In this document: positions 166 to 49,605 of the stretch, in pieces
How positions within the stretch are numbered: the stretch's first letter is position 1
Layout of the letters: each line of letters opens with the position of its first letter
Origin: an uncultured Eubacteriales bacterium
Lineage (GTDB): Bacteria; Bacillota; Clostridia; Lachnospirales; JAISER01
Reading direction: 5' to 3'
Length of the DNA: 64,000 bases
Assembly (NCBI GenBank): GCA_964545475.1
Contig: CAZJGG010000003.1
Coordinates: 757-64,756, forward strand
The notes under the pieces: model-generated
What the model was told of the DNA's origin: nothing
Databases searched by the model: none
Seen by the model: the letters and a program-made list of their open reading frames with translations, nothing else
Made by a program: the position numbers and the translations under genes

Positions 166-433
166 TTGCGCCAATTTCTTCAAGCTCCTTCTTAAAGCCT
201 TCGTAAACGTCTTTCGGCACTGCAGCCTTAAAAGAACGTTCAAGCCCTCTGGATTTAACCGCTTTTGAGAGACAGTCGGCATTAGGGCAAATATATGCGC
301 CGCGCCCAGCCTTTTTGCCTGTTTTGTCTATTAAAAACTCGCCGCTTTCTGTGCGTACGACTCTAATAAGCTCTTTTTTAGGCTTCATTTCCATACAGCC
401 TGTGCATTTTCGCTGCGGTATTTTATTCATCAT
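149..433 (-). CDS. ylxR: YlxR/RnpM-family (DUF448) RNA-binding protein
   Basis: Track ORF 149..463. Contains KCTGC...KKELIRVV...GRGAYIC, the typical YlxR pattern. I moved the start to the ATG pair at 433/430, which overlaps the nusA stop at 423. Confidence 0.8.
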   Translation of the reverse strand: MMNKIPQRKCTGCMEMKPKKELIRVVRTESGEFLIDKTGKKAGRGAYICPNADCLSKAVKSRGLERSFKAAVPKDVYEGFKKELEEIGANEQRN

Positions 434-1598
434 GATTTTCAGCTTCTTTAAAATCCTCATCATCGCCAGAAACGTTGATTTCTAGGCTTTCTTCTTGGGG
501 CAAGCCTAATTCCATAACGTTTTCTTGCTCTTTATTAACAACCATAAAATCGGATAAATCTTGTGAATGGGATTTGCTCTTAATATCAATTCTCCATCCG
601 GTAAGTTTTGCCGCAAGCCTTGCGTTTTGACCGTCCTTACCGATAGCAAGAGAAAGCTGGTTATCCGGCACAATAACTTTTGCCGTTTGGTTATCAGCGT
701 CTATGGAAACCATTAAAACCTTGCTTGGGTTAAGAGCTTGTGCAATAAAGTTTATAGGGTTTTCATCGTAATTGATAATGTCTATTTTTTCGCCGTTAAG
801 CTCTGCGACAACAACGTTTACTCTAGCACCGTTTTGCCCAACGCAAGCGCCTACAGGGTCAACGTTAGGGTTTTTTGAATAAACAGCAATTTTTGTTCTG
901 CTGCCGGCTTCTCTGGCAATAGACTTGATTTCAACAACCCCGTCGTAAATTTCAGGAACTTCCTGCTCAAAAAGCCTTTTAACAAGCTCTGGGTGGGTTC
1001 TGGAAACGTTAATAACAGGACCTTTTGTTGTTTGTTTAACTTCAACAACATAAATTTTAAGTCTATCGCCGAAGTTATAAGCGTCTGTAGACATTTGCTC
1101 CGATTGGGGTAAAACAGCATCAATTTTTCCCATGGCAACGTAAACGTTTTTATGTTCTTTACGCTGAACAATGCCTGTAACAATGTCGTGTTCCTTGGAA
1201 ATGTATTCGTTGTATAAAATTTCACGTTCGGCTTCTCTAAATTTTTGAACAACAACCTGTTTTGCCGTTTGTGCGGCAATTCTGCCAAAGTTTTTCGGCG
1301 TAACAGCGATGTCTACAATATCTCCGATTTCATACATAGGATTTAAAAATTTAGCTTCTGGCAAAGTTATATGGGTATTTGGGTCAATAACTTCTTCTGC
1401 AACCTCTTTTACGGCATAAACAGCAACATTTCCTGTTTTTCTGTCTATTACAACTTTTACGTTTTGCGACGTACCAAAATTCTTTTTGCAAGCAGAAACA
1501 AGTGATGTTTCTATAGCTTCAAAAATAATTTCCTCGTCAATACCTCTTTCCTTGGATATTTGATTTAATGCTTCGATTAAATCAAGGCCTTTATCCAT
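423..1598 (-). CDS. nusA: Transcription termination/antitermination factor NusA
   Basis: 391 aa. The N-terminal domain, S1 and two KH regions are recognisable (for example GDIV..VTPKNFGRIAAQTAKQVV and IGKDGQNARLAAKLTGWRIDIKS). Sits in conserved rimP-nusA-ylxR context. Confidence 0.95.
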   Translation of the reverse strand: MDKGLDLIEALNQISKERGIDEEIIFEAIETSLVSACKKNFGTSQNVKVVIDRKTGNVAVYAVKEVAEEVIDPNTHITLPEAKFLNPMYEIGDIVDIAVTPKNFGRIAAQTAKQVVVQKFREAEREILYNEYISKEHDIVTGIVQRKEHKNVYVAMGKIDAVLPQSEQMSTDAYNFGDRLKIYVVEVKQTTKGPVINVSRTHPELVKRLFEQEVPEIYDGVVEIKSIAREAGSRTKIAVYSKNPNVDPVGACVGQNGARVNVVVAELNGEKIDIINYDENPINFIAQALNPSKVLMVSIDADNQTAKVIVPDNQLSLAIGKDGQNARLAAKLTGWRIDIKSKSHSQDLSDFMVVNKEQENVMELGLPQEESLEINVSGDDEDFKEAENHDE

Positions 1599-1616
1599 TT
1601 TGCTAAAACCTCCTCT

Positions 1617-2081
1617 TTAAAAAAATACGGCAAGCTTGCATGAAGCTGTGTCTTTTTGGTCAAATTCCAAAACGCCGCATTTTTCATCATTAATTTTAAT
1701 AATGCCGTCTTGATAGGATAACAGTTCGCCTTGAAACAGCTTGCAGCCGTTTCTTGCTTTAAAAAGCTTTATGTCAACAATACTTCCTATATGTTTTAAG
1801 AAATGAGCTTCTTTTTTAAGAGCTCTGTCAACCCCGGGGGAACTTACTTCAAGTATATATGGGTGGGAAACAGGGTCTCTTTCGTCCAAAAGCTTGTCTA
1901 TTTTTTTATTAATTACTTCGCAATCGGAAATAGTAACTCCGCTGTCTTTGTCTATATAGGCACGGATATACCATTCTTGCCCCTCTTTAACATACTCTAC
2001 GTCATACAAGCTTAACCCCTCGCTTTGCACAACAGGCTCAAAAATTTCCCACAAAAAAGGAAGCAGATCTTTTTTATTCAT
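1617..2081 (-). CDS. rimP: Ribosome maturation factor RimP
   Basis: Track ORF 1617..2090. Contains the EVSSPGVDRALK motif and lies immediately upstream of nusA. I chose ATG 2081 as the start because GAGAGG lies 8 nt upstream; the GTG at 2090 has no spacer. Confidence 0.85.
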   Translation of the reverse strand: MNKKDLLPFLWEIFEPVVQSEGLSLYDVEYVKEGQEWYIRAYIDKDSGVTISDCEVINKKIDKLLDERDPVSHPYILEVSSPGVDRALKKEAHFLKHIGSIVDIKLFKARNGCKLFQGELLSYQDGIIKINDEKCGVLEFDQKDTASCKLAVFF

Positions 2082-2155
2082 TTTAAACACCTCTCATTCG
2101 TACGTATACCCATTTCAACAATTAATTGTTATGAGTATAAATTAGGGCAAGAACA

Positions 2156-2185
2156 GATAAGAGTGGGTTCGCACCCACTCTTATC
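2156..2185 (-). terminator. Terminator-like leader hairpin upstream of rimP-nusA (candidate attenuator)
   Basis: Perfect 13-bp inverted repeat GATAAGAGTGGGT / ACCCACTCTTATC with a 4-nt loop. On the minus strand it is followed by an interrupted T tract (TGTTCTTGCCC). It lies between the predicted promoter (2214-2242) and the rimP start. Confidence 0.5.
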
Positions 2186-2213
2186 GTCATCTAGCATCTA
2201 TTAATCAAAAAGC

Positions 2214-2242
2214 AGTATAACACAAATAAATTCTTAATGCAA
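2214..2242 (-). promoter_or_regulatory. Candidate sigma-A promoter for rimP-nusA
   Basis: The minus strand reads TTGCAT, 17 nt, TATACT, with TG 1 nt upstream of the -10 (extended -10). Confidence 0.5.
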
Positions 2243-2251
2243 CTGTTTTTA

Positions 2252-2280
2252 TTGAAAAACCCAAGAAATAAATGTATAAT
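2252..2280 (+). promoter_or_regulatory. Candidate sigma-A promoter for the A2M-like gene
   Basis: TTGAAA, 17 nt, TATAAT, about 35 nt upstream of the AGGAGG SD and ATG 2314. Confidence 0.55.
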
Positions 2281-2313
2281 GTTATTATTCAAACAAATCA
2301 AGGAGGAAATTAC

Positions 2314-5300
2314 ATGAACAAAAAGAACGCATTTGCTGTTGCCGCTGTTGTGTTAGTTATATCTATAGCTTCAGCGGCATTTTATTTTATGGGCGGAGGC
2401 AAACCGGAAGACAATAAAGTAGCGGATAATAACCTGCCAAAAAGCATACAAAATGTTCCGGAAACACCCGAAAATGCTCAATTTAAAATCGCCCCCTCTG
2501 CAATAGGTGATATTGTTATAACTCCGGCGAGTTTTTCGGAGCTTGGTGTTTCAGTGGATTCCTCCTTTTTAATAAAAGCAAAGGCAGAAATTTCCGAAGA
2601 CGAGATTTTAGCAAGGCTTAGTGTAAAATCCGGAGAATCCTTTAAAATAGAAAAATCTAAATCAAAAGAAGCAGACTACTTGCTCTCTTTTAATGAACCT
2701 CTTGAAAAAGAGAAAATATATAATTTCCAATACTTAGAAGAGGGCAAAGCGCCATTGTCTTTTGCTTTTCAAACAGAAAGCGGTCTTAAAATAATATCAT
2801 CAAACATAGCCCAAGATGCATACGCCGTCCCTGTAGAAAGCGGTATAGAGATTACGTTTAATCAAGAACTTGACCGTGAAAGCGTATTTGAGGAAAATTT
2901 TAGAATAAGCCCGGAAGTGACTGGTAAATTCATAAAAGTAGGCAATACATATAGTTTTATTCCCGATAGATTGCAATATAACGCTGAATATAACATAACT
3001 GTGGCAAAAGGCTTAAAAAGCCTTGAAGGAGACGTTTTAGAAGAGGATTACAGCTTGAAATTTCACACAACATGGGAGTACGATGCAAATGGTAATGTAT
3101 TCGCTATTACAGGGGATATGCGCCAGACATATTTGCCAAGTGAAGACGTTGTTTTTGAAATGAGCGTGGGAAAAGAAATAGCGGCAGCAGGCATTGAAAC
3201 AAAGATTTACAGCATAAAAACTAAAGAGGATTACTTAAACTCTATAGACAAGCCTGTTAACGGAGAATTAGAAGAAATTATTGAAACAGAGCTTATAGAA
3301 AGCGTTCAGGAATATTCTACATCTTATTACTTATCTTTAAATAAGCCGCTGGAAGAAGGATATTATTATATTTCCTTAAAAACGGAGGTGGGAGGGCAAA
3401 CATTTGAAGCCCACAAGCTTGTGCAAGTTTCGCCGCTTTCTGTTTATTGCCTCTCTATAGGTGGAGATATGTTAGTTTGGGTTAACGATACAAAAACTGG
3501 TAAACCGGCAGAAGGAGCAAATGTAATTACGGACAGCATTACGGCTGTTACAGACAGCGAAGGCAAAGCAATTTTGCAAACAAAAAAGGATAATAAAAAT
3601 GCTGTAACGGAAATCAGTTACGGAAGTTATAAAACTTTTATTTACAACAACGTTACATATAGCCAGAAAGAATTAAGTATTAACCAAAAGTATTTTTCTT
3701 ATGTTTATACAGACAGAGCCCAGTATAAGCCTAACGACTCAATTGACGTTTTTGGCGTTATAAAAGAAAGATATTCTCAATATAAAATAACAAAAAATGA
3801 TAAAGTAACTGTAAAACTAGGGGACATTAAAGAAATTCCTGTGGAAGTAGACAACTACGGCACTTTTAATGTAAAAATTCCCGTTAGTAATATGAAGGGA
3901 TTCAGTTATATTTATATATATTTAAACGGTGAAAGGTTAACTGAAACATCGGTTAACTTTATTGAATATCAAAAAAGTAAATATATTTTTGATATTAAAC
4001 TAGACAAACCATTATATATGATTGGGGAAGAGATTGGCTTTACAATTAATGCAACAACTTTTGACGGCACTCCAGTTGGGGGTATTGCCATTAACTGCTC
4101 TGAATATCCAGAAGCAAACTGTGTTACAGATGCAAACGGGACAGCAACAGGAAAGCTGACTGTAAAAGGCGGAAGCTGGTGGGATTGGAAGCCTTATTAT
4201 TCAGGGTTATGGTTTTCAACTGTAAGCGATGACGACAACCCCCAAAGCATTTATACATATTTTTATACTATGCCAAGCGATGTAATGCTTGAACATAAAA
4301 AGCTTTCTGATAACTCTATAGAATTTACTTCAAGCGCAATTGATGTGGAAAAAGCAAATAAGTATCTTGAAAAAGATAATAATAATTTTGACGAAGATGT
4401 TTATAGAGGTAAATCAATTGATATGAGCTTTAGCATTAAAGTTACAAAAACTACAAATATGCTTGTTAAAGTCGGGGAACGGTACGACTTTATAAACAAA
4501 GTAAAAGTTCCGTCTTTTAAATATGATAGTAAGCAAGAGGATTACGGAGTTATAGACGTTAAAACAGTTAACGGAAAAGCTGTAATTACTGATTTGCCGT
4601 CAAGCACAGATCCCCTTGTTTCATATTCTTTTGATCTTAATATGACGGACAAAAAGGGTGGAAATATAAGCTATAGATTATATGAATTTGACATTTACAA
4701 ACCTATGTACAGCGGTAAAAAAGAATATGCCCTTAGTTTTACAAAAAAAGATTCAAATAATGTTTATGATTCTTATGCCAAAATGGAACTTAATGAAACT
4801 GTAGATTTGTTTGTTGAAGACAGAAGCGGCGAAGAAAAACAAGTAACAAACGGCAAACTTTTAGTAGTAAATGTACATAACCAACGGGTTTTAAATTCTC
4901 ATACGGGAAGCCCTCAAAAATTGCCGTTTACGTTTACAAAAGATAATATTAATATGTCTGAAATGTTTGGGGCATATTTCGATGGAAAGTATATATACCC
5001 TCTATATCCCCTTTATATTTATTATGGATACGATGAAAGAAAGCTTGATATAGACATTTCTTTTGATAAAGAAAGCTATAAGCCGGGAGAAGAGGTTGCC
5101 GCAAAAATACAAGTTAAAGACAAAGACGGCAAAAACCGAAAAGCATTGGTTAATTTAAGCGTTGTAGACGAAGCAGTGTTTGGCATGATGGATCACGTGC
5201 CAATGTTTTTAGACGGGTTTTACGGAAGCATAAATTCCTATTCGTATGACTACTTTGTTTATGTATCTTATACTCCACAGATTTACGGCTGGGGAGGGGG

Positions 5301-7236
5301 AGCAGAAAAAGGCGGCGGCGGAGACGAATATATGTTAAGGAAAGACTTTGTTGACAATCCTTATTTTATTTCTTCCGAAACCGATGATAACGGCGCTATA
5401 ACAATTAAGTTCAGGTTGCCGGATAATATTACATCATGGAGGACGGCAGTTCACGCAATAACACAGGATAACTATTTAGGAAATACACATTCACATGCAA
5501 TTTCAACCCTTCCTTATAACATAGATGTTGTTATGGCAGACAACTTTGTTGAAGGAGACGATTTTGCGGTTTTAATAAAATCTTTCGGTAATGAGTTTAA
5601 ATTTAACGATACAGAGGTTAAATATGCTGTAGAAATCTTAAATAAAGATAACAGCATTGTTTACAACGGAGAAAAAACCAGTAAGACCTATGCAGACTTT
5701 AATGCCGGAAAACTCCCTAAAGGGGAATATACCGTAAGAGTTTACGGCGAGGCTGGGGAATTTAAAGATGCTATGGAAAAAACCGTTAATGTATCTGATG
5801 TTAACAACATTTTACCAATAAACGCAACAGCATTAATTTCAGATGAAAACCTTAAGCTTCCAGGTTATGACATAATCGGTTCACCAATAAAAATGGAGTT
5901 TTCAAACGGTGAAATAAGTGATTTTATAAACGTATTAAAAGACTGTATGAACTTTACATCAAACAGAACGGATTACACAGCCGCAACTGCTTTCGGGCAA
6001 GACTTTTTAAAAGGAGTACGGTACTATGGCGGAGATGAAAATCCCTATGAAAGCGTTTATTTAAATGCAAAAGGTTCTATAGATGATGTTTACGGTGTTT
6101 CCGAGCTGGTTTACGGAGAAAAAGAGCCGTTATACACAGCAAGGTTTGCCGCAAGCTTCCCGGAAATTGTAAGCTTTGACAGCATTTTGCGATATATAAA
6201 TGAAGAAACACAAATGTATGGAAGTAATGGTTTAGTTCCAAAAGAGTTTACAGAAAGCAGACAGGAAACTCTTCGTGCCGCAGGTTATTTAGCCCACGCC
6301 GCAGGTCAAAAAAGCGTGCTTTTAGAAATTTATAAGCAAATTGAAATAATAGAAAACGATGGAAACCAGCAAAAATTTACTACAGATTATTATGAGAATT
6401 TACGGGTTATGTTTTATGCAGCGGCTTTATGCGCTTTAGGAGACGACGTTATGGCAAGTTCCCTTATGGAAAAATACGGCAGCCCTAAGCTTAATTTAAG
6501 CGACGTAGATGAGAAAGAAGAGGAACTACGTTACGAATATATTAAAACCATGCAGCTTTTTGTTAATACTACTATTGCGCCGGACAAAGCTTTTGATTAT
6601 CTCATAAACAAAAAGCCAAACAAATTTGTAAGTGATGTTTGCGAAAAAATTAATTTTATTAGGAAGGCGTTCCCGGCTGGCGGTGTAAAATCCGAAATAA
6701 GCATTAGCTTAAACGGCAAAACAGAGAGCATTAAGCTTACAAATTTTGAAACCAGGTTTATAGAAATTTCAAAAGAGCAGTACGAAACTCTTAACATTAA
6801 GCAAATAAGCGGAAAAACTCAAACATGGCTTTCTTTTAACGGAAGCCCAGCAAACTTAGACGAAAGCTTAAAACAAATTAAAATAACAAAAAATATTGAA
6901 AAATCCGACTTTTCGGAAAACATGTATAAAGTTACGTTAACAATAGAACCGCCTGGAAATGAAAAGCTTTATAGTTACACAATAAGGGATAGAGTACCTA
7001 GCAATATGCGCTACACAGGGACAAACAGACCTATGTTTGAAGACGGCAGTTATTATTTCATAGACAACACTGAAAAACAGTTTTTAAACATTGATGTCAG
7101 TGATATGCTAAACAGAAGTACTTACGAAGTAACTTATCACTTAATAAAAGTAAACGATTCAGAAGCAGTTGAGGGTCAGGCCTATGTAAGCGGTTATAAC
7201 TTTAAGACGGATAAAATTTGGGGAGCTACCCAATGA
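2314..7236 (+). CDS. Membrane-anchored alpha-2-macroglobulin (MG-domain) family protein with no thioester motif
   Basis: Track ORF 2272..7236. I moved the start to ATG 2314: AGGAGG lies 7 nt upstream and the predicted promoter falls inside the longer ORF. It has an N-terminal TM segment (AFAVAAVVLVISIASAAFYF) and an Ig-like domain. It also carries the signature DNPYFISSETDDNGAITIKFRLPDNITSWR, typical of bacterial A2M/MG domains. No CxEQ motif occurs anywhere in the translation. Confidence 0.75.
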   Translation: MNKKNAFAVAAVVLVISIASAAFYFMGGGKPEDNKVADNNLPKSIQNVPETPENAQFKIAPSAIGDIVITPASFSELGVSVDSSFLIKAKAEISEDEILARLSVKSGESFKIEKSKSKEADYLLSFNEPLEKEKIYNFQYLEEGKAPLSFAFQTESGLKIISSNIAQDAYAVPVESGIEITFNQELDRESVFEENFRISPEVTGKFIKVGNTYSFIPDRLQYNAEYNITVAKGLKSLEGDVLEEDYSLKFHTTWEYDANGNVFAITGDMRQTYLPSEDVVFEMSVGKEIAAAGIETKIYSIKTKEDYLNSIDKPVNGELEEIIETELIESVQEYSTSYYLSLNKPLEEGYYYISLKTEVGGQTFEAHKLVQVSPLSVYCLSIGGDMLVWVNDTKTGKPAEGANVITDSITAVTDSEGKAILQTKKDNKNAVTEISYGSYKTFIYNNVTYSQKELSINQKYFSYVYTDRAQYKPNDSIDVFGVIKERYSQYKITKNDKVTVKLGDIKEIPVEVDNYGTFNVKIPVSNMKGFSYIYIYLNGERLTETSVNFIEYQKSKYIFDIKLDKPLYMIGEEIGFTINATTFDGTPVGGIAINCSEYPEANCVTDANGTATGKLTVKGGSWWDWKPYYSGLWFSTVSDDDNPQSIYTYFYTMPSDVMLEHKKLSDNSIEFTSSAIDVEKANKYLEKDNNNFDEDVYRGKSIDMSFSIKVTKTTNMLVKVGERYDFINKVKVPSFKYDSKQEDYGVIDVKTVNGKAVITDLPSSTDPLVSYSFDLNMTDKKGGNISYRLYEFDIYKPMYSGKKEYALSFTKKDSNNVYDSYAKMELNETVDLFVEDRSGEEKQVTNGKLLVVNVHNQRVLNSHTGSPQKLPFTFTKDNINMSEMFGAYFDGKYIYPLYPLYIYYGYDERKLDIDISFDKESYKPGEEVAAKIQVKDKDGKNRKALVNLSVVDEAVFGMMDHVPMFLDGFYGSINSYSYDYFVYVSYTPQIYGWGGGAEKGGGGDEYMLRKDFVDNPYFISSETDDNGAITIKFRLPDNITSWRTAVHAITQDNYLGNTHSHAISTLPYNIDVVMADNFVEGDDFAVLIKSFGNEFKFNDTEVKYAVEILNKDNSIVYNGEKTSKTYADFNAGKLPKGEYTVRVYGEAGEFKDAMEKTVNVSDVNNILPINATALISDENLKLPGYDIIGSPIKMEFSNGEISDFINVLKDCMNFTSNRTDYTAATAFGQDFLKGVRYYGGDENPYESVYLNAKGSIDDVYGVSELVYGEKEPLYTARFAASFPEIVSFDSILRYINEETQMYGSNGLVPKEFTESRQETLRAAGYLAHAAGQKSVLLEIYKQIEIIENDGNQQKFTTDYYENLRVMFYAAALCALGDDVMASSLMEKYGSPKLNLSDVDEKEEELRYEYIKTMQLFVNTTIAPDKAFDYLINKKPNKFVSDVCEKINFIRKAFPAGGVKSEISISLNGKTESIKLTNFETRFIEISKEQYETLNIKQISGKTQTWLSFNGSPANLDESLKQIKITKNIEKSDFSENMYKVTLTIEPPGNEKLYSYTIRDRVPSNMRYTGTNRPMFEDGSYYFIDNTEKQFLNIDVSDMLNRSTYEVTYHLIKVNDSEAVEGQAYVSGYNFKTDKIWGATQ

Positions 7237-8084
7237 AAGAAATTTTGACTATAGTTTTATGTTTAATAAGTGTTTTTTCAAGAGTTGACAGTACGGAATA
7301 TGCTGTAAACTCTAAAATGCTTAATATTAAAACCATTACTGGGGCAGAATTTAAAAATTCTGTTCAAAATCCAAGGGAGTATTATTTTAGTGAGAAAGTG
7401 TCAGCAGGGGTTGTGCCACACCATACAACTGCGGCGGAGCTAATTTCAGGCTTTTTTGAAGCTTGCTCCGAAAAAGGCGTCTACGACACAATTATTATAA
7501 TTTCTCCTAACCATGAAGGGGACTTAGCAGGGGTTGTTACGTCTCTTTCTGGTTTTAATACAGGAAGTGGTGTTTATTGCGACACAGACATAATAAACGA
7601 AGTTTGCGAAAATTTTGATAATATTACTTTAAATGATGAAAGAATGGAAGCGGAGCATTCCGCTTCCGTTTTAATGCCTTATGTTAATTATTATTTTCCA
7701 AAAGCAAAGGTTGCGCCGTTTTTAGTTAGCAGAACACTTTCCATGGACGAAACTTTAATATTAGCAGAAACCATTGAAAATGCGGCAAAAAACTCTGAAA
7801 AAAAGGTATTATTATTATGTTCTATAGACTTTTCCCATTTTTTATCCCCGGAAAAGGCTGCTTTAAATGATATAAAAACAAAGGAGGCAATCCTTTCAAA
7901 GGATTACCTCCAAATTCATAACTTTTCAAATAATTTTGTAGACAGCCCCGCCTCCCTAATAATTTTTTTACATTACCTTGAAAGCTTAGGGAAAAGCCTT
8001 ATAATTATTGATAACACGGATTCCTCGTATTTTTTACGTCAGCGCATGATTGAAACTACAACATATTTTGTATTAGCCGGCTAA
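7233..8084 (+). CDS. MEMO1 / AmmeMemoRadiSam-B-like (LigB superfamily) protein with an N-terminal signal-like segment
   Basis: Track ORF 7218..8084. ATG 7233 overlaps the upstream stop as ATGA. Motifs GVVPHHTTAAE, SPNHEG, AEHSASVLMPY and SIDFSHF resemble the MEMO family. The hydrophobic N-terminus is KEILTIVLCLISVF. Confidence 0.55.
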   Translation: MKEILTIVLCLISVFSRVDSTEYAVNSKMLNIKTITGAEFKNSVQNPREYYFSEKVSAGVVPHHTTAAELISGFFEACSEKGVYDTIIIISPNHEGDLAGVVTSLSGFNTGSGVYCDTDIINEVCENFDNITLNDERMEAEHSASVLMPYVNYYFPKAKVAPFLVSRTLSMDETLILAETIENAAKNSEKKVLLLCSIDFSHFLSPEKAALNDIKTKEAILSKDYLQIHNFSNNFVDSPASLIIFLHYLESLGKSLIIIDNTDSSYFLRQRMIETTTYFVLAG

Positions 8085-8095
8085 ACGGTTTTGTT

Positions 8096-8515
8096 TTATC
8101 TTTTTGGTTTTTTTAGAATGCCCATGTTTATGCCTATTACACCGCCTAAACCCCCGCCGGAAAGTGAAAGAATCAATAATGTAATTGTGCGGGAATCAAC
8201 TTTAAAGCCTTTGTTTACCCAAATGCCGATTGCAGCAAGGAGTACTGCGTAAATTAAACCGGCAATTATGCCCCATAGCCAGCCTCTGCTTTCGGCATAC
8301 TTAGAGGCATCAAAACCTGCAACAACAACGGATATTAACGTTGTTACCGTTACGACAAGCGGCAAGCTTTGCCCGGTAAACGATGAATATGTAATAAGCA
8401 CGGCATATCCAATTAATACAACGGCCGTTATAGCATACGCCACTAATACACCCGAAATTAGTGAATTTAGCTGGGACGGCTTTTCCTCGGTTACTACATT
8501 TGTTACCTGCTTCAT
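8096..8515 (-). CDS. Small integral membrane protein (about 4 TM; possibly YrzE/TIGR04086-like)
   Basis: 139 aa with four hydrophobic stretches rich in G, A, I, L and V. The family call is tentative. Confidence 0.6.
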   Translation of the reverse strand: MKQVTNVVTEEKPSQLNSLISGVLVAYAITAVVLIGYAVLITYSSFTGQSLPLVVTVTTLISVVVAGFDASKYAESRGWLWGIIAGLIYAVLLAAIGIWVNKGFKVDSRTITLLILSLSGGGLGGVIGINMGILKKPKR

Positions 8516-8587
8516 GTAAGAACCTCCATATTATATTTGCTTACTACTATTTTACTATGAGTAAAAGCAAAATATGAATGTTCTGTA

Positions 8588-9031
8588 CTATAAAATATGC
8601 AGTACGCTGTCGCCCTCAGTGTTAATAGTTTTAAGCAAGCTCAACGCTTCTGCCTGATATTCGGTAATTTCATGAAGCTTATTAACAATGGAAGTATAAT
8701 CTGCATTTGAAATCATAATTTTAAAATCTTTATTAGCGTGTATTTTTTCAAGTGCTATAGACAGCTTTGCGCCTTGATTATGAGAAAGGGTAATAAATTT
8801 AGCAAAATATTCAATTTGTTTTTCAGAAAGGCTTTTTTTAATATGCTTCATAAAATCAAGCCTTGCCTGAATTTTTGTATTAATTTTTTCCCTTTCATTA
8901 AGCTCTTTTGTAATTTTTTTTGTATTTTCGCTTAAGTTTTTCATCATTTTATCAATACTTGCCTCTTTGTTTTTAGTCGGCTTATTAATGATCTTGTTAC
9001 TATCAGATTCATAGCTTAATAATGCAGACAT
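8588..9031 (-). CDS. Hypothetical helical/coiled-coil protein
   Basis: 147-aa ORF, Lys/Glu-rich, with a GGGGG SD-like run 6 nt upstream of the ATG. I recognise no family. Confidence 0.5.
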   Translation of the reverse strand: MSALLSYESDSNKIINKPTKNKEASIDKMMKNLSENTKKITKELNEREKINTKIQARLDFMKHIKKSLSEKQIEYFAKFITLSHNQGAKLSIALEKIHANKDFKIMISNADYTSIVNKLHEITEYQAEALSLLKTINTEGDSVLHIL

Positions 9032-9267
9032 CGAAAGCCCCCGTTTTCTAAAGCTGTTCCATGTTTTACCAGGAAAGCTCTAATTGTTTTTTGCTATATT
9101 TTATTATACGACTTTTTTGTAAAAAAGTCTCAACCACGCACCTATGCATGTTAATACTAAGGCGTAGTTGTCGGAAAGCAGTGCGGACAAAATGTCCGCA
9201 CGCCGTCATGACAATATTTATGTTTCACTGTCATCCCGATTATAACACATCGCAATCAAGAAAAATG

Positions 9268-9444
9268 TCAAATCCTGCCACCGGAAAGCATCATCATCAT
9301 AAGCATCATCATCATGGAATTATCGCCTCCGCCTCCGCCGCCACACATTCCCGGGTTCATCATCATCATCATTAAAAGCATCATCATCATATCGTTGCCA
9401 GGCGCTTGAGGAGGGCAGCCAATACCCATACCCATGTTATTCAT
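9268..9444 (-). CDS. Unannotated small ORF encoding a methionine-rich peptide (58 aa)
   Basis: Hand translation gives MNNMGMGIGCPPQAPGNDMMMMLLMMMMMNPGMCGGGGGGDNSMMMMLMMMMLSGGRI followed by a stop. GGGAGG (9453-9458) lies 8 nt upstream of ATG 9444. It has the same orientation as its neighbours and falls below the 60-aa track cutoff. Confidence 0.5.
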   Translation of the reverse strand: MNNMGMGIGCPPQAPGNDMMMMLLMMMMMNPGMCGGGGGGDNSMMMMLMMMMLSGGRI

Positions 9445-9492
9445 AATTACAACCTCCCATAAAATATTAAAAAATACTAATTCTGAAGGTGA

Positions 9493-9533
9493 CCTCTAAA
9501 AACCTGCTTTGTTTGGATTTTCGAGGTTGCCTG
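9493..9533. repeat. Short hairpin resembling the termini of the palindromic repeat family (possible remnant)
   Basis: CCTCTAAAAACC...GGATTTTCGAGGTTGCCT. Compare the ends of copy A: CTCTAAAAACC (32238) and TTTTTAGAGGTTGCCT (32391-32406). Confidence 0.35.
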
Positions 9534-9558
9534 TATACAGAACCAGCCTTTTAATATT

Positions 9559-10818
9559 TTATGACATGGCATTTAAATGTTGCTTGTCTTTGTTTAAATA
9601 CTTGTAAATAATCCACGCATAGGCATAAACAGCGGAAACAAGGCTGTCCATGCTTATATGCTCGTTTTCTTGATGGGAAGAGTAAATTTCCCCAGGCCCA
9701 AAAATAACTGTAGTAATTTTGCCATATGCCTCTAAAAGCCCTGCATCGCTCCAAGAGGGATAATAATTATAGCGGGGTTTTTCGTTAAGCATATCTGTAA
9801 TGCCAAGGCAGACGGATTTTATAATGTCGCTGTCAAGGTTTGCGTTTAAAGGCTTGCGTTTTAAGCCGTTTTTAAGTTTTTTATGTAATTTATAGCTTAT
9901 TTTTACTTTTGGCTCTGATTCCAAAAAGGCCTCTATTATTGAATTAAGCTCTTCTAAAACCTCTTCTTCGCTTTCATCAGGTAAATATCGCCTTTCAAGA
10001 GTAATTACGCATTCCCCGGCAACAGTTGAAGAAAGACCGCCGCCGGAAATTCTGCTTATATTAAACGAACCCTTGCCAATAAGCGGATGTGTGGCATAGG
10101 CTATGCTCTCTTCAAGGCATTTCTCCATATATACAATAAATTTGGAAGCGGTGGAAATAGCGTTTATACCGTTTTCAGAAATTGCGCTATGAGTGGGAGA
10201 GCCTTCAATTTTAATATCAACAACAACAAGCCCACGCTGGGTTACACAAATATCAAAACCTGTAGGTTCTGCCACAATTGCGGCATCAATGTTTTTATTG
10301 TGTTCCAACAAATATGTAGTTCCTAAACTTCTATCTTTTTTGTCTATAACAGCGGAAAACAAAACATCTCCTGCAAGGTAAAGATTCATTTCTTTTACGG
10401 CAATTATGGCGCAAATCATTGTCGCAAGCTGGCCTTTCATATCTGTTGCGCCACGGCCGTATATATAGTCGTTATCTATAACAGGTTTTAGAGCACGGTT
10501 TGTGTCGCTTGGGGGCGCAGTATCCATATGCCCTGTTAAAAGCAATGTTTTTCCGCCGGTTTTCCCTTTTAGCCTGGCTGTAACGTTACATCTTCCGTCT
10601 TTAACTTCATGAAGCTCTGCAACTATGCCGTATTCCTCAAATAAAGACTTTATAAAAAGAGCACATTCTCTTTCCTGTTTTATAATCCCGGGATAGCTTG
10701 GTATTGCAATTAAATCTTTTACTATATCAAAAACAAGCGCTAATGGAATTGCTTTGTTTATTTTATTTCTGAAAATGGTTGGGGTTTGTTTCCACCTTAT
10801 GCTAACTTTATTTTCCAT
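9559..10818 (-). CDS. M20-family metallopeptidase (ArgE/DapE-like deacylase)
   Basis: 419 aa. Contains LLLTGHMDTAPP, GRGATDMKG and VAEPTG, which are M20 metal-site motifs. Confidence 0.8.
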   Translation of the reverse strand: MENKVSIRWKQTPTIFRNKINKAIPLALVFDIVKDLIAIPSYPGIIKQERECALFIKSLFEEYGIVAELHEVKDGRCNVTARLKGKTGGKTLLLTGHMDTAPPSDTNRALKPVIDNDYIYGRGATDMKGQLATMICAIIAVKEMNLYLAGDVLFSAVIDKKDRSLGTTYLLEHNKNIDAAIVAEPTGFDICVTQRGLVVVDIKIEGSPTHSAISENGINAISTASKFIVYMEKCLEESIAYATHPLIGKGSFNISRISGGGLSSTVAGECVITLERRYLPDESEEEVLEELNSIIEAFLESEPKVKISYKLHKKLKNGLKRKPLNANLDSDIIKSVCLGITDMLNEKPRYNYYPSWSDAGLLEAYGKITTVIFGPGEIYSSHQENEHISMDSLVSAVYAYAWIIYKYLNKDKQHLNAMS

Positions 10819-10962
10819 AAATATACCTCAAAATCTATCGTTATTAACAATTCAAAAACTATTATAATTTGAAAATTGCTTCGTATTACATTATAACAAC
10901 AGGCTATGTACAATTCAAATAAAAAATAGTATTATTAAAATAAAACTCTAAAGGAGTAATAT

Positions 10963-11628
10963 ATGATACAAATATGTGAGGACTGGTCATCAAGGCTGTC
11001 AGAAGAATTTAATAAGGAATATTATTTAAAATTAAGAGAATTTCTTAAAAATGAATATAAAACAAGGCCCATATATCCCCCGGCAGAGGAGATTTATTCG
11101 GCTTTAAGGCTAACATCTTTTGAAAATACAAAGGTTGTTATTTTAGGACAAGACCCTTACATAAATAAAGGCGAAGCCCATGGTCTTGCGTTTTCTGTTA
11201 ATAAAGATATAAAAATACCTCCGTCCCTTAAAAACATATATAAAGAAATTGAACAAGACATTGGCTGTAAAAAACCTGACCACGGCTGCTTAACAGACTG
11301 GGCAAAACAAGGGGTTTTGCTTTTAAACACAACACTTACAGTTAGGGCAGGGCTTTCAAGGTCTCATTACGGGCAGGGCTGGGAGGTTTTTACAGACAAG
11401 GTAATAGAACTGTTAAATGAAAAAACAACCCCCATAGTTTTTATGCTTTGGGGGAAAAACGCACAAAACAAAGGGCATTTAATAACAAATGATAAGCACT
11501 TGGTTTTAACCGCCGCCCACCCAAGCCCTCTTGCAGGAGGGCGCTTTAATGGATGCAAGCATTTTTCAAAAGCAAACGCTTTTTTGGCGGAAAACGGAAT
11601 TCAACCCATTGAATGGCAAATATACTAA
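10963..11628 (+). CDS. ung: Uracil-DNA glycosylase (family 1)
   Basis: 221 aa. Contains VVILGQDPY, HGLAFSV and HPSPL motifs. AAAGGAG SD is present. Confidence 0.92.
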   Translation: MIQICEDWSSRLSEEFNKEYYLKLREFLKNEYKTRPIYPPAEEIYSALRLTSFENTKVVILGQDPYINKGEAHGLAFSVNKDIKIPPSLKNIYKEIEQDIGCKKPDHGCLTDWAKQGVLLLNTTLTVRAGLSRSHYGQGWEVFTDKVIELLNEKTTPIVFMLWGKNAQNKGHLITNDKHLVLTAAHPSPLAGGRFNGCKHFSKANAFLAENGIQPIEWQIY

Positions 11629-11630
11629 AA

Positions 11631-14600
11631 TTACATAAGTGTTAACTGCCTTGTTTCCGGTATTCCTTTAAAAACACCGTTTTTCTTTAAAAGTTCAATA
11701 ACGGTTTTATTTGTTTTAGTTCTTTCACGGAAATCTTCTATAGTGATAAATTCTCCGTCTTTTCTAGCTTCAACAATGTTTTGGGCAACACTGTCTCCAA
11801 GCCCGGAAATGGAGGATAAAGGCGGCATAAGTCCGTTGGGGGTTACGGTAAATTTTGTGGCTTGGGCTTCGTAAAGGTTTAATTCCGTAAACTTAAAGCC
11901 ACGTGTATACATTTCGTAAACAAGCTCCAAAACGGTGTAGGAAGCTTTGTCTTTAGCGGATGCTTCGTCTCCAAGAGAGCTAATCCGCCTCATTTCCAGC
12001 CGCAAAGTATCTATGCCGTGGCACATTGTTTCATAATTAAAATCTGAAACCTTAACGGAAAAAGTTGCGGCGTAAAAGCTGTAGGGGTGATATATTTTAT
12101 AATACCCAATTCTTACTGTCATCATAACGTAAGCAACGGCGTGACCTTTTGGGAACATATATTTAATTTTTTTGCAGGAATCAATGTACCATTCGTCAAC
12201 GTTTGCATTTCTCATAATTTCTTCCTGCTCCGCTGTAAGCCCTTTGCCTTTTCTAACAGATTCCATTATTTTAAAGGAATCTTTACGTGGAGCTCCTTTG
12301 TTTATTAAGTAAACCATAATATCGTCACGAGTTGGTATAATTTCTTTAAGAGTTGCAATGCCTTCCTTTACAAGCTCTTGGGCATTATTAATCCAAACGT
12401 CCGTTCCGTGGGAAAGCCCTGAAATACGTACAAGTTCCGCAAAAGTTGTGGGCTTAGTTTCCATTAGCATTCCTCTAACAAAGTGTGTGCCGAATTCTGG
12501 AAGCCCCAAAGTTCCTGTTTGGCAGTTTATTTCATTTAAGTTAACTCCCAAAGCTTCCGGGGACTGGAACAGAGAAATAATCCTTTTATCCCCTAAATCA
12601 ATGGTTTGTGGGTCTACGCCGGAAGTATCGTGAAGCATACGCACAATTGTTGGAACGTCGTGACCCAAAAGGTCAAGCTTTAACAGACGCCCCTCAATGG
12701 AGTGATAGTCAAAGTGTGTTGTTGTTATATTAGACGACGTATCGTTTGCCGGGCGTTGAACAGGGCAAAATTCATAAATGGAATGCCCTTTTGGTAAAAT
12801 AACAAGACCACCGGGGTGTTGCCCTGTTGTTTTTTTAATGCCAGAACAGCCGATTTTAAGCCTGTTTATTTCTGCCTGCCGTAAATTAAGCCCTTTTTCC
12901 TCTAAAAATTTCCGAACATAACCATAAGCCGTTTTTTCCGCAAGGGTGCTTATAGTGCCGGCTTTAAACACGTTTTCAGATCCAAAAAGAGATTCGGCGT
13001 ATTGATGGGCCTTAAGCTGATATTCCCCGGAAAAGTTAAGGTCAATATCTGGCTCTTTGTCGGCATCAAAGCCTAAAAAGGTTTCAAAAGGAATGTCGTG
13101 ACCGTCTTTGTGGAGAGGTTCACCGCAGTTTGGGCAGTTTTTGTCCGGCATATCGCAGCCGGAAGCCCCTGCAAACTGTTTAACAATATCCGAATCAAAA
13201 TCGGAATATTTACAGCTTTTGCAAACGTAGTGGGGGGAAAGAGGGTTAACCTCTGTAATTCCAGATAACGTGGCAACAAGGGACGAACCAACAGAGCCTC
13301 TTGAACCTACTAAATACCCGTCCTCCATTGATTTGGAAACAAGCTTTTGCGCCGCTATATACATAACGGAGAACCCGTTTTTAATAATAGAATCAAGCTC
13401 TCTATGAAGCCTTGCAGCAACAATTTCCGGCAAATTTTCGCTGTATACTGCTCTTGCTCTTTCCATTGTAAGCCGTTCAATTTCCTCTTTACAGCCGTCA
13501 ATATGGGGAGGGAACTTTCCGCTTGGAATAGGGGAGTAGTCTTCAAACATATCCGCTATTAAATTTGTATTTGTAACTACAACTTCTTTGGCAAGCGCTT
13601 CTCCTAAATATTCAAACTCTTTAAGCATTTCCTCTGTTGTGCGGTAATATAGAGGAGCTTGCAGGTGTGCATCGTTAAAGCCCTCTCCTGTCATAAGGAT
13701 TTGACGGAAAATAGCATCCTCCGGGTTTAAAAAGTGAACGTCGCATGTTGCAATAGCCAGCTTGTTATGGGCTTTTGCAAGATCTACAATCCGTTTGTTT
13801 ATGTTAATTAAATCCTGCATAGAGGAAACCTGACCGTCTCGTACTAAATACATGCAGTTAGGAATCGGCTGAATTTCATAATAATCATAAAAAGAAGCTA
13901 TGGAATTTATATATTGCTCTGGCTTGTTCTCTTTTATAGCTGTATAAAGCTCCCCGGCATCACACGCAGAGCCTAATATTAAACCCTCTTTAAGCCGAGA
14001 AAGCTCGCTTTTAGGTATTCTCGGGCGTTTAAAGAAATATTTTAAATGGGAAAGAGAAACAAGCTCGTAAAGGTGGTGTAGCCCTGTTAAATTTTTTGCA
14101 AAAATAATAGCGTGTTTGTGTTTAAGCTTGGATTTATCCATTTCGTTTGAAGCAATGGCGTTTATTTCCTCAATGTGGTTTACGCCTTTTTCTTGTAAAA
14201 TAGGCAAGCATTTAATAAATATTTCGGCTGTTGCCGCCGCATCGTCTACTGCTCTATGGTGGTTTAAAAGGGATACGCCTAAATGCCTTGCAACAACATC
14301 TAGCTTATGCTTATTAAGCCCCGGAAATAAAAGTCTGGAAAGCTCTAAGGTGTCCAAAACGGTGTTTGTTATGTAAATATTTTGGCGTTTTGCCGCATTT
14401 GTAACAAAGCCAACATCAAAAGAGGCGTTGTGAGCAACAAAAACACCGTCGCCAACAAAGCTTAAAAATTGAGGTAAAACATCAGTTATTGCAGGGGCGT
14501 TTTCCACCATTGCATTGGTTATGCCGGTTAAATCTGTAATTTTATCAGGTATGCGCCTTTTTGGGTTAACAAAAGTGCTGAACTTATCTGTTATAACTCC

Positions 14601-15950
14601 ATTTTCTAGCTTTACAGCCCCAATTTCAATAATTTCATCGGAGTTTTTTGAAAGCCCTGTTGTTTCAATGTCAAAAACAATAAAAGTGCTGTTAAGGGTT
14701 TGTCCTTTTGGGCTTTCAACAACAGAAGCTAAATCGTCAATAACATAGGCTTCAACGCCGTAGAGCACTTTAACGCCGTATTTTGCGGAAGCCGCCATAG
14801 CTTCAGGGTATGCCTGGGTAACGCCGTGGTCTGTAAGAGCAATTGCTCTATGCCCCCATGCCGCCGCACGCTCTAAATAATCGGAAATGGTGTTCATTCC
14901 ATCCATTGCGCTCATGTTTGTGTGCAAATGCAGTTCCACTCTTTTTTGCTCTGCATTATCCTGTCTTTTTAAAGATTTTTCCATTAGCGCAATTTCATTT
15001 GCCATTATGTTAAGTTCTTTTGAATATTCATCAAATTGAACTTTGCCTTTTACTTTTAAATATTTACCATTTTTAAGAATTGGTTTAAATTCATTAAATT
15101 TATCTGCTTTTGAAAAGAATTTTATTGTTATTGAGTCTGTGCCGTCTGTTATATCTGCTGTAACAAGTATGTTTCCGCTTTTTGTTTCCCTTGTCTCGCT
15201 GGAAATCACTTCACCGTTTACAATAATTTCAGAATCCTTTTCAAGTTTGTCGGAAAGCAAGACGCATTCGCCGTCAATGCTTTCAACAAGCTTTGTCTCT
15301 TTTCTTCCGCCACCTTTGCCAGAAAACTGCTTAAAGCCATCTTTTGGAGCAGGCTTAGGCGCTGGTTTTTGTATTTTAATGGGTAGGGCAGGTTCTTTTG
15401 GTATATCGTATGTAATATGTTCTTTTCTTTCCGTCTTTTTCTTTTTTTCACCGGGTTTGTATATAAAATCCACGTTTAGGCTTATTCCAAGGCGTTTTTC
15501 AATAAGTCCGCTTATAAGCTGGGGTATTCTTTTTCTAATAAATAAAAACTCATAGTTATAATTAATAGTAATTATAAGTTTGCTATTTTCTACAACCCAT
15601 TCAGAGGAGTTTAAAATTTTAGCGCACATATGGCTGGTATTGCTAACTTCGTGCAAAATGCTTTTCCAAATTAGGGATATAAGCTTTTTAGTGTCGCTTT
15701 CGCCAAAGTCGTAGCGCAAATGCACAGAAATATGCTCCATTTCGGGAAAGCTTTCTTTCATTTGGTTTTCAAGCTCCGTTAAATGTTTCTCGTCTAAAAC
15801 CTTGTTATGGCTTAAAAATAAGTCCATTGCTTTTTTTCCGGTACTTATTTTAAGGCTTGAAATTTCCGTCTGTTTAAAGCTGTCTTTTATATCATCAGTT
15901 AAATTGATTTTTTCAAAAACTTCGCAAAACTTTTTTAATTGTGCAGGCAT
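11631..15950 (-). CDS. polC: DNA polymerase III alpha subunit, PolC type
   Basis: 1439 aa. The PHP domain is interrupted by a DEDD exonuclease (FVVFDIETTGL...HNASFD...HRAVDDA), followed by the polymerase core. This architecture is unique to Firmicute PolC. Confidence 0.97.
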   Translation of the reverse strand: MPAQLKKFCEVFEKINLTDDIKDSFKQTEISSLKISTGKKAMDLFLSHNKVLDEKHLTELENQMKESFPEMEHISVHLRYDFGESDTKKLISLIWKSILHEVSNTSHMCAKILNSSEWVVENSKLIITINYNYEFLFIRKRIPQLISGLIEKRLGISLNVDFIYKPGEKKKKTERKEHITYDIPKEPALPIKIQKPAPKPAPKDGFKQFSGKGGGRKETKLVESIDGECVLLSDKLEKDSEIIVNGEVISSETRETKSGNILVTADITDGTDSITIKFFSKADKFNEFKPILKNGKYLKVKGKVQFDEYSKELNIMANEIALMEKSLKRQDNAEQKRVELHLHTNMSAMDGMNTISDYLERAAAWGHRAIALTDHGVTQAYPEAMAASAKYGVKVLYGVEAYVIDDLASVVESPKGQTLNSTFIVFDIETTGLSKNSDEIIEIGAVKLENGVITDKFSTFVNPKRRIPDKITDLTGITNAMVENAPAITDVLPQFLSFVGDGVFVAHNASFDVGFVTNAAKRQNIYITNTVLDTLELSRLLFPGLNKHKLDVVARHLGVSLLNHHRAVDDAAATAEIFIKCLPILQEKGVNHIEEINAIASNEMDKSKLKHKHAIIFAKNLTGLHHLYELVSLSHLKYFFKRPRIPKSELSRLKEGLILGSACDAGELYTAIKENKPEQYINSIASFYDYYEIQPIPNCMYLVRDGQVSSMQDLININKRIVDLAKAHNKLAIATCDVHFLNPEDAIFRQILMTGEGFNDAHLQAPLYYRTTEEMLKEFEYLGEALAKEVVVTNTNLIADMFEDYSPIPSGKFPPHIDGCKEEIERLTMERARAVYSENLPEIVAARLHRELDSIIKNGFSVMYIAAQKLVSKSMEDGYLVGSRGSVGSSLVATLSGITEVNPLSPHYVCKSCKYSDFDSDIVKQFAGASGCDMPDKNCPNCGEPLHKDGHDIPFETFLGFDADKEPDIDLNFSGEYQLKAHQYAESLFGSENVFKAGTISTLAEKTAYGYVRKFLEEKGLNLRQAEINRLKIGCSGIKKTTGQHPGGLVILPKGHSIYEFCPVQRPANDTSSNITTTHFDYHSIEGRLLKLDLLGHDVPTIVRMLHDTSGVDPQTIDLGDKRIISLFQSPEALGVNLNEINCQTGTLGLPEFGTHFVRGMLMETKPTTFAELVRISGLSHGTDVWINNAQELVKEGIATLKEIIPTRDDIMVYLINKGAPRKDSFKIMESVRKGKGLTAEQEEIMRNANVDEWYIDSCKKIKYMFPKGHAVAYVMMTVRIGYYKIYHPYSFYAATFSVKVSDFNYETMCHGIDTLRLEMRRISSLGDEASAKDKASYTVLELVYEMYTRGFKFTELNLYEAQATKFTVTPNGLMPPLSSISGLGDSVAQNIVEARKDGEFITIEDFRERTKTNKTVIELLKKNGVFKGIPETRQLTLM

Positions 15951-22689: not shown

Positions 22690-22762
<73 letters not shown>

Positions 22763-22780
22763 TATTTTTATCCGCACAAC

Positions 22781-49158: not shown

Positions 49159-49605
49159 TCATTTCACAAAGTAATAAATTAAACCTACTATTACCGATGT
49201 TAAAACCCCATATAATATTACAGGACCAGCTACTAAAAATATTTTTGCGCCAACACCAAGAATGTAGCCCTCTTTTTTAAATTCTATGGCTGGAGCGGCA
49301 ACGGAATTTGCAAAGCCTGTAATAGGAACGACAGAACCTGCTCCGGCAAATTTGCCGAATTTATCGTAAACACCAAAGCCTGTTAATAAAACGGCGATTA
49401 AAATAAGAATAATAGAGGTATACATGCTTGCGTCGTCTTTTTCAAAGCCACGGTTAACAAAATAATTATTAATAAATTGCCCAACTGTGCAAATAAAACC
49501 GCCAACTAAAAACGCCTTTAAGCAATCGGAAACGATATTTGAATTTGGTGAGGCTTTTTCAACCATTTTTTTATATTTATCTTTGCCTTTTTGAGTTTTG
49601 TCCAT
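49159..49605 (-). CDS. spoVAC: Stage V sporulation protein AC
   Basis: 148 aa. Aligns to B. subtilis SpoVAC as I remember it (CLKAFLVGGFICTVGQ, FAGAGSVVPITGFANS). Confidence 0.88.
   Translation of the reverse strand: MDKTQKGKDKYKKMVEKASPNSNIVSDCLKAFLVGGFICTVGQFINNYFVNRGFEKDDASMYTSIILILIAVLLTGFGVYDKFGKFAGAGSVVPITGFANSVAAPAIEFKKEGYILGVGAKIFLVAGPVILYGVLTSVIVGLIYYFVK

Follow-up and report, generated by a model that had tools for sequence, protein, structure and literature searches.

The minus strand of the window, a 64-kb stretch (64,000 nucleotides) of a contig from an uncultured Eubacteriales bacterium, carries a short open reading frame (ORF) of 58 codons which starts with the ATG at 9444-9442 and ends with the TGA stop at 9270-9268. 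Its product, MNNMGMGIGCPPQAPGNDMMMMLLMMMMMNPGMCGGGGGGDNSMMMMLMMMMLSGGRI, is exceptionally rich in methionine (Met). This ORF is almost certainly a genuine, conserved and selected protein-coding gene, translated in the Met frame, and it belongs to a previously undescribed family of small (~55 residues) proteins of spore-forming gut Clostridia.

Twenty-one of the 58 residues are Met (36.2%), with runs at residues 19-22, 25-29, 44-47 and 49-52. There are also two Cys (C10 and C34) and a run of six Gly at 35-40. An earlier note on this DNA had claimed these features from the letters alone (the number of codons and of Met, the four Met runs, the Cys pair and the Gly6 run), together with a GGGAGG 8 nt before the ATG, and all were confirmed on the minus strand (Table 1). 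The Met richness is far above chance. The repeat (ATG)4 occurs five times in the window, every time within this ORF, where 0.02 occurrences would be expected. The ORF also heads the ranking by Met content of the 176 ATG-started ORFs of at least 40 aa in the window (36.2%, with the runner-up at 15%), and genes of at least 200 aa in the window have a mean Met content of 3.0%.

The Met frame and its family

A word-indexed protein homology search with the peptide gave no match, probably because its composition bias defeats this type of search, and the protein collection contains no exact copy of the peptide. An exhaustive phmmer search (HMMER; 1.84 billion representatives) recovered six proteins of 53-78 aa with a matching layout, for example P0123 (MNNNMGVGYCPAPAGNEMIMMLCLLMIMYPGMFGGCGDNSMIFFLLIFMMFSGGRF). 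A degenerate DNA pattern was then written by hand from the invariant residues of the family and used on a metagenome collection. On the window, its sole match was the window's own copy; on the metagenome collection it found 22 loci, 21 of them true members (52-59 aa). The window copy, the phmmer proteins and the pattern-scan loci make up an alignment (A5) of 24 distinct members, 23 besides the window copy. The pattern catches only members with canonical spacing, and therefore the family is probably larger than this. Two candidates were rejected. The false positive of the pattern scan (L010:512-684, minus strand) is a 158-aa acidic protein on a contig of high guanine-cytosine (GC) content, unrelated to the family; its Gly/Met repeat (GGGGMGMMGGGMMGGMMGGMMGSGGMM) makes it another Met/Gly-rich oddity. 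P0129 is an unrelated, high-GC, Ala/Arg-rich protein of 414 aa, and its place in one 90% cluster with the 53-aa member P0128 is a clustering artefact.

Several features which the DNA pattern did not impose are nevertheless common to the members, namely a Shine-Dalgarno (SD) sequence, a Met content of 20-36% (highest in the window copy), a promoter and, in the loci of subfamily A, a neighbouring gene here called c0. In particular, GGAGG or GGGAGG is found 6-9 nt 5′ of the start in 21/21 distinct loci. The Met frame is the sole frame without stops in all 21 distinct coding sequences; the other frames have stops in most of them. The ratio of non-synonymous to synonymous substitution (dN/dS, Nei-Gojobori) has a median of 0.15 over 84 informative pairs and is below 1 in 84/84. 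The pair L012/L023 differs by 8 synonymous and 0 non-synonymous changes. Members differ in length by whole codons only. Moreover, the gene calls of an independent Logan assembly include the window ORF, and the identical 58-aa peptide is found in three independent assemblies.

These data bear on whether there is a gene here at all. A drifting ATG/CAT trinucleotide repeat could produce such an ORF, or the real product could be the His-rich protein of the plus-strand ORF 9061..9375, and both the (ATG)4-5 repeats and the 104 open codons of that opposite frame could be read in this way. The plus-strand ORF does exist, with its His-run tail and, as had been claimed, with no SD. It runs antisense through the intergenic region, and a TTA Leu codon of the Met frame provides, as TAA on the opposite strand, its end. 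However, the His frame is interrupted by stops in 19/21 distinct members, the indels are whole-codon and the peptide recurs unchanged in independent assemblies, which leaves virtually no room for a repeat or for the His-rich product. The contention of the earlier note that this is a true Met-frame gene and not a microsatellite is borne out by 23 homologues that keep the frame, the SD and the architecture. The homologues, sought as it had proposed, show a conserved frame and SD with mostly synonymous change, and neither non-triplet indels nor loss of the SD or frame were seen.

Known families offer no counterpart. No Pfam or NCBIfam model matched the 24 members beyond noise (none at E <= 1 beyond noise), a PDB sequence search gave no relative, a scan of viral contigs found no copies of the gene, and literature searches turned up no relevant account of a small Met-rich protein of sporulation or of the coat. 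The window peptide lacks Lys, and its only Arg is the penultimate residue (57). Trypsin would release one hydrophobic peptide of 57 residues, and cyanogen bromide would leave fragments of one to a few residues; with no Lys and only that Arg, the product would escape standard trypsin-based proteomics.

Helices and the thioether side chain

The family consensus is MNNxGVGYxPxQxGND-MxMxLLLLMMM-xPGMMGGDN-MMxMLLLLMMx-SGGRMx. A polar N-terminus of ~16 residues, rich in Gly, Pro and Asn, precedes two hydrophobic Met/Leu segments of ~11 residues in each member, both with N/D at their start and PG or SGG at their end, and from their sequences the two halves of the protein look like an internal duplication. 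A conserved Met cluster stands at the ends of each helix with a Leu-rich middle between; in the window copy, the extreme of the family, most of this middle is Met as well. AlphaFold2, given an alignment of seven sequences, placed helices at residues 17-29 and 43-53 at low confidence (predicted local distance difference test, pLDDT, 57). The protein's two hydrophobic helices are thus formed by the Met runs, and in relatives they are made up of M/L/I/F.

By inspection, the hydrophobic stretches are only 10-12 residues long. None reaches ~19 residues, no stretch of 19 is free of N, D, P and G, and the helices appear too short and too tightly bounded by these residues for ordinary transmembrane segments. 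An export signal is also absent by inspection, the N-terminus (MNNxGxGxxP...) being polar with no hydrophobic signal segment. The earlier statement that the peptide has neither a signal peptide nor a transmembrane segment holds for the signal; its second half is only literally true, as the Met runs are hydrophobic helices. That they are helices had been overlooked, as had the location of the promoter within the 3′-terminal part of the M20 peptidase gene and the standing of the 147-aa gene, c0, as a conserved partner.

Met makes up 28.9% of family residues, and is accompanied by Gly (16.3%), Leu (12.4%), Asn (8.5%) and Arg (1.7%), with no Lys or Trp. Nine alignment columns are at least 90% Met, and Met accounts for 56% of all M/L/I/V/F residues. 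The GC content of the host loci ranges from 29% to 55%. Since a residue with a single codon is held at ~29%, and at fixed positions, across hosts this different, the thioether side chain itself appears to be selected, beyond mere hydrophobicity. To our knowledge, at ~30% Met this is the most Met-dense natural protein family.

One possible use of such side chains is the binding of soft metals, with the Met clusters acting as a sponge for Cu(I) or Ag(I), or lining the pore of an oligomer, like the Mets motifs of Ctr1, CopC/PcoC and CusF. The Met residues are position-specific; helix 1 begins with M-x-M and ends with MMM, and clustered Met with these two motifs is common to the family and to the Mets motifs of the copper proteins. 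CusF uses an MxM pair; in human Ctr1, an MMMMPM motif occurs together with a ring of MxxxM. Targets of the sporulation sigma factor SigK in Clostridioides difficile moreover include feoA, a cation efflux protein and an MgtC-family protein. However, the Cu(I)/Ag(I) sponge put forward in the earlier note finds no support in the context. No cop, cus, csoR or other copper gene occurs in the 24 loci, and the members lack a signal peptide, whereas known Met sites for Cu(I) act outside the reducing cytoplasm. His (0.9% of family residues) and Cys (1.0%) are not conserved, the His/Trp ligands of the copper proteins have no conserved equivalent, and none of the 24 members matched CopC, CusF or another family in Pfam or NCBIfam. 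The family is also predicted to be helical and not a beta-barrel, with its Met embedded in uninterrupted, fully hydrophobic helices and not in polar loops. Metal binding is thus distinctly unlikely.

Alternatively, the hairpin might be membrane-active, its short helices wedging into one leaflet (e.g. of the outer forespore membrane) to anchor or regulate c0, or to act as a toxin-like peptide. Half of the residues are M/L/I/F/V/C, with no Lys and one Arg, and the helix caps are placed as expected for anchoring at an interface. In addition, c0 proteins come in short forms without an anchor of their own and long forms with one, and genes for ABC-2-type transporters lie near the peptide gene in several loci of subfamily B. 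However, helices of ~11 residues cover about half of a bilayer, interruption by Asn, Asp, Pro or Gly falls within every 19-residue stretch, and the loop (NPGMxGG..DN) is polar and would be costly to bury. The peptide is anionic, whereas leaderless bacteriocins and type I toxins typically carry Lys and Trp, both absent here, and no conserved antisense partner or immunity gene accompanies it. We regard a membrane-active role as unlikely.

Promoter type and spore-forming hosts

Alignment of the upstream regions revealed a two-block motif, gGAC(a/g)(t/c)GCAACA-N14-CATAnaAT, in 21/21 distinct loci. Its spacing is fixed and its spacer sequence variable, and it usually stands 28-36 nt before the ATG. 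In the window, a pattern search located it as GCAAC-N15-CATAAAAT at 9583..9556. Mapped SigK promoters of C. difficile have the form xGTAACA, 15-17 nt, CATAgtAT, as in CD1067 (GTAACAATTAAGATTATAAAAGCATAGTAT), CD1518 and CD1340, the last with a spacing of 15 nt (PMC7438776 Table S6). The SigE promoters of this species share the CATAnnAT -10 box, but have ATA at -35. For Bacillus subtilis, Eichenberger et al. describe a SigK motif made of a -35 element of 5 nt and, 14-16 nt away, a -10 element of 10 nt; they also report that the residues by which these sigma factors recognise promoters are conserved among endospore formers (PMC517825). A SigK-type arrangement, with xAACA at -35 and CATAnnnT at -10 separated by ~15-17 nt, was found in 21/21 distinct loci, the spacing lying at the short end. 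Judged from this resemblance, the motif is probably a SigK-type, late mother-cell promoter, and expression would then be late.

The window transcript is predicted to start near 9549, which would give it a leader of ~105 nt. In other members the leader is ~22-30 nt, too short for an element such as the hairpin found in the window leader (Table 1), and the hairpin is absent from them. Within it, CTGTATACAG is a perfect palindrome with GGTT/AACC flanks, and beside it the -35 box recurs as a partial copy (ACAGGCAAC). This copy, at ~9527-9535, was considered as the -35 box of the window and rejected, its -10 being poor; the pattern search put the true match 50 nt further upstream. Two further matches to the promoter pattern in the window, at 18313 and 58446, lie within opposite-strand genes and are due to chance.

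The host of the window is an endospore former, given that its spoVAC gene (49159..49605, minus strand) scores 192 bits against an equivalog cut-off of 164. The adjoining 337-aa ORF (48136..49149) is presumably spoVAD. The contig of the nearest homologue (L003) encodes SpoIID, a Spo0E-like protein, a sigma factor and a D-Ala-D-Ala carboxypeptidase S11/S13, which we read as dacF-like. The host lineage is isolated, the homologues of its M20 peptidase reaching at most 41% identity, and a scan of the genome collection anchored on this peptidase returned only one irrelevant locus from Coxiellaceae. The source metagenome Ga0082212 comes from the gut of higher termites (PMC8124441). In the window, the Met cassette lies in a block of six other genes (423..15950) between polC and rimP-nusA, encoding an A2M-like protein of 1654 aa, Memo, DUF3792, c0, the M20 peptidase and UDG. 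In Firmicutes polC and rimP-nusA are usually adjacent. Other samples with Ga numbers we take to be from termite gut also.

In kind, the family comes closest to the small SigK-dependent spore proteins of endospore formers, which it resembles in promoter type (xAACA, 15-17 nt, CATAnnAT), size, composition bias and spore-forming host. The SigK regulon of C. difficile has many comparable small members annotated as 'conserved hypothetical', and the Cys-rich CdeC and CdeM are composition-biased coat or exosporium proteins of a similar kind. However, these proteins have no sequence relationship to the Met-rich family, for which a coat location is only proposed, and its Met bias is without precedent among the spore proteins described in the literature searched. 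YjcZ family sporulation proteins (NCBIfam) and SpoVM, also from spore formers, do not exceed ~50 aa and have hydrophobic stretches after a Gly-rich N-terminus. The present family differs from them in having two capped Met/Leu helices in place of one Phe/Ile/Leu/Val segment, and matches no NCBIfam or Pfam model. In the M domain of SRP54/Ffh, in calmodulin and in the Met-rich low-complexity domain of yeast Pbp1, Met serves as a plastic hydrophobic surface or a reversible oxidation sensor. These proteins are unrelated and of much lower Met density, and the likeness is one of analogy only.

Such a Met content also invites comparison with seed storage proteins, and the peptide might be a compact reserve of Met or sulphur, laid down in the spore and degraded at germination. 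The family mean of 28.9% Met would fit this, as would the origin of at least one source metagenome in the higher-termite gut (PMC8124441). The 10-kDa and 18-kDa delta-zeins and the 15-kDa beta-zein of maize are likewise small, hydrophobic, exceptional in Met and made for a dormant stage, the delta-zeins being a dedicated Met-rich sulphur sink (PMC3420316). Unlike them, the family is bacterial, has no homology to zeins, and shows a mother-cell-type promoter, position-specific conservation and a partner protein. Delta-zeins contain ~22-27% Met, and the family more (mean 29%, up to 36%). Germination reserves such as the small acid-soluble spore proteins are made in the forespore under SigG, however, and a mother-cell-type promoter does not suit a store. 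Position-specific conservation, helix caps and a conserved partner point rather to a folded, interacting protein, and a 6-kDa product would have to be very abundant to matter as a reserve. A store is very unlikely. The family is closest by kind to small, composition-biased SigK spore proteins, resembles Met copper sites and seed storage proteins by chemistry, and belongs to none of these.

Table 1. Features at the Met-rich locus, in window coordinates.
Feature	Position	Strand	Remarks
CDS, 58-aa Met-rich protein	9268..9444, including stop codon	-	Homologues; only frame open in all members; dN/dS 0.15; gene call in an independent assembly
Shine-Dalgarno GGGAGG	9453..9458	-	8-nt spacer ttgtaatt to the ATG
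-35-type box GACAAGCAAC	9579..9588	-	GAC at 9588-9586, GCAAC at 9583-9579; within the last codons of the M20 peptidase gene
-10-type box CATAAAAT	9556..9563	-	Overlaps the M20 stop TAA (9561-9559)
Leader hairpin/palindrome GGTT-CTGTATACAG-gcAACC	9525..9544	-	Read directly from the sequence
Hydrophobic helix 1 (predicted)	9358..9390	-	Residues 19-29, MMMMLLMMMMM; opened by G-N-D, closed by N-P-G; MxMxxLLLMMM in relatives
Hydrophobic helix 2 (predicted)	9286..9315	-	Residues 44-53, MMMMLMMMML; opened by D-N-S, closed by S-G-G-R
Extended -10-like element TGTTATAAT	9239..9247, TATAAT at 9244-9239	-	Between the peptide gene and c0
Stem-loop gtgcggac-attt-tgtccgcac	9181..9201	-	3′ of the stop, no clear U-run; extended stem dG -21 kcal/mol
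Partner gene c0, 147 aa, predicted three-helix	8588..9031	-	Homologue downstream in subfamily-A loci

Partner gene c0, downstream elements and proposed role

A c0 gene lies directly downstream of the peptide gene, on the same strand, in 10/10 distinct subfamily-A loci with enough DNA, as judged by ORF clustering and profile search. The c0 proteins span ~125-190 aa. A word search with the 147-aa protein of the window gave no homologue, and c0 has no relative in Pfam, NCBIfam or the PDB. AlphaFold2, run on the single sequence, predicts helices at 20-67, 70-98 and 109-139 (pLDDT 70), and a fold search yielded no significant match, only generic three-helix bundles (best E = 0.28). A comparison of the homologues at L003, L021 and L014 shows that the long forms of c0 bear an N-terminal signal or anchor (..IGGLLVLSLL..) and that the short forms, including that of the window, start where the mature part begins. 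Whether the Met-rich protein works together with c0 is, on this evidence, an even call. Other recurrent neighbours in subfamily A encode an AI-2E-family transporter, thioredoxin, DUF6715, a PHP-domain protein and a DUF3792/TIGR04086 membrane protein, and a gene for the last is found in the window too.

The region between the peptide gene and c0 contains both elements that the earlier note had placed there, an extended -10 (hexamer 9239-9244) and a hairpin (9181-9201). The first, TGTTATAAT, has no -35 box at the right spacing and was not listed by a promoter scan of the window; it is possibly a separate promoter for c0. A stem-loop after the stop, with a dG of -11 to -28 kcal/mol, is found in 20/21 members (-6 in L003). 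Its distance from the stop is at most ~110 nt (at most ~60 nt in 19/21), and a U-run is usually absent. Its structure is kept and its sequence is not, and it could serve to stabilise the 3′ end or to terminate transcription in part. In L003:6172-6400 and L009:2872-3100 (29% and 55% GC), the peptide-c0 intergenic region begins with GAGCCTGTTTAGTATCT in both, and the complementary CTAAACAGG(T) follows ~130-170 nt later; the window has no such pair. Going by their complementarity, the two would form a long-range stem enclosing the spacer.

Members of subfamily B (MNNTGVGYVADQGND...) have no c0. Their genes follow chromate-transporter genes, and are themselves followed by a conserved non-coding block in the ~130-200 nt directly 3′ of the stop (e.g. 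L007:3290-3440), and then by a terminator hairpin. This block, seen in L006, L007, L011, L012, L015, L017, L019, L023 and L024, reads AGATGTGGGAAGCATCT ... GCCCrAAyCATCTCCCC ... ACAAAAGA ... TTACCGGGCGTACATAA ... AGCCTGCGCC. RNAalifold found only two short helices in it, with one compensatory change (AUG/CAU to ACG/CGU) in the first hairpin, and an Rfam search with the block gave no match. It may be a new element of the 3′ untranslated region or a small RNA.

With its runs of a single codon, and with a hairpin and a co-directional gene downstream, the ORF might instead be taken for a regulatory leader peptide, whose Met codons sense the supply of Met-tRNA and control the downstream gene through the hairpin. 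However, residues outside the Met runs, in particular NPG, GND and SGGR, are conserved under purifying selection, and the downstream gene is never a methionine gene, being c0 or none at all. Subfamily B has a terminator and no co-directional gene downstream. No alternative-pairing signature was seen, and no Rfam element: across the window and 20 loci, Rfam returned only two tRNAs (22690-22853), and nothing at or near the Met ORF or in the loci. Fifty-eight codons are also long for this class. The suggestion of a Met-tRNA-sensing leader, made in the earlier note, has to be abandoned, its probability being practically nil.

In the reading we prefer, the Met-rich protein would be made late in the mother cell during sporulation. 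It would fold as a fully hydrophobic helical hairpin unable to stay free in water, and for that reason would either be held by c0 or be built with c0 into a late spore structure, in the coat and outer layers or at a membrane surface. Its thioether side chains would be the functional groups, and the Met residues might be a sacrificial layer, consumed by oxidants as Met turns into Met sulfoxide. Taken as one package, a real gene, SigK-type late expression and a partnership with c0 fall slightly short of an even chance, leaving the oxidant sink aside. The oxidant sink is itself doubtful, but more likely than the capture of soft metals (Cu(I)/Ag(I)), the second option. The full picture of a late-sporulation Met material, in which c0-held hairpins of ~55 aa and ~30% Met form a thioether layer of the spore that consumes oxidants or traps soft metals, is a speculative one and rather unlikely. 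Of the earlier proposals of an oxidant sink or a Met reserve in the spore, an oxidant-sink or spore-linked role gains indirect support from the SigK-type promoter in all loci and the spore-forming host, whereas a Met reserve in the spore core fits a mother-cell promoter poorly.

A number of points weigh against the preferred reading. What we say of promoter class, location, a complex with c0 and the use of the thioethers is inferred, and in the case of the promoter class from similarity only. With 15 nt between the AAC of the -35 and the CATA of the -10, the spacing is among the shortest of C. difficile SigK promoters, and the window leader is unusually long (~105 nt against ~25 nt elsewhere). 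AAC-containing -35 boxes are typical of promoters of extracytoplasmic function (ECF) sigma factors too, and an ECF-type sigma factor may be the reader of the motif. The confidence of AlphaFold2 for the peptide is low (pLDDT 57). An anchor present in some c0 proteins and absent from others, including that of the window, is hard to fit to one location, and c0 is absent beside the members of subfamily B. The family shows no linkage to a methionine sulfoxide reductase gene, and the thioredoxin gene found 1-2 genes upstream in several subfamily-A loci may be plain synteny of related genomes.

The gene illustrates a blind spot in detection. It falls below common length cut-offs, composition filters suppress its homology matches and trypsin-based proteomics would not see its product. 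As to annotation, a 147-aa 'orphan' is now a member of a conserved family. A residue with one codon, making up ~3% of this genome's proteins, is kept at 20-36% and at fixed positions, a rare case of apparent selection for the thioether. If the promoter assignment is right, this two-gene unit would be a new and chemically distinct component of late sporulation, in anaerobes that face exposure to oxygen. A thioether layer of the spore, if true, would represent a new chemical principle of spore protection.

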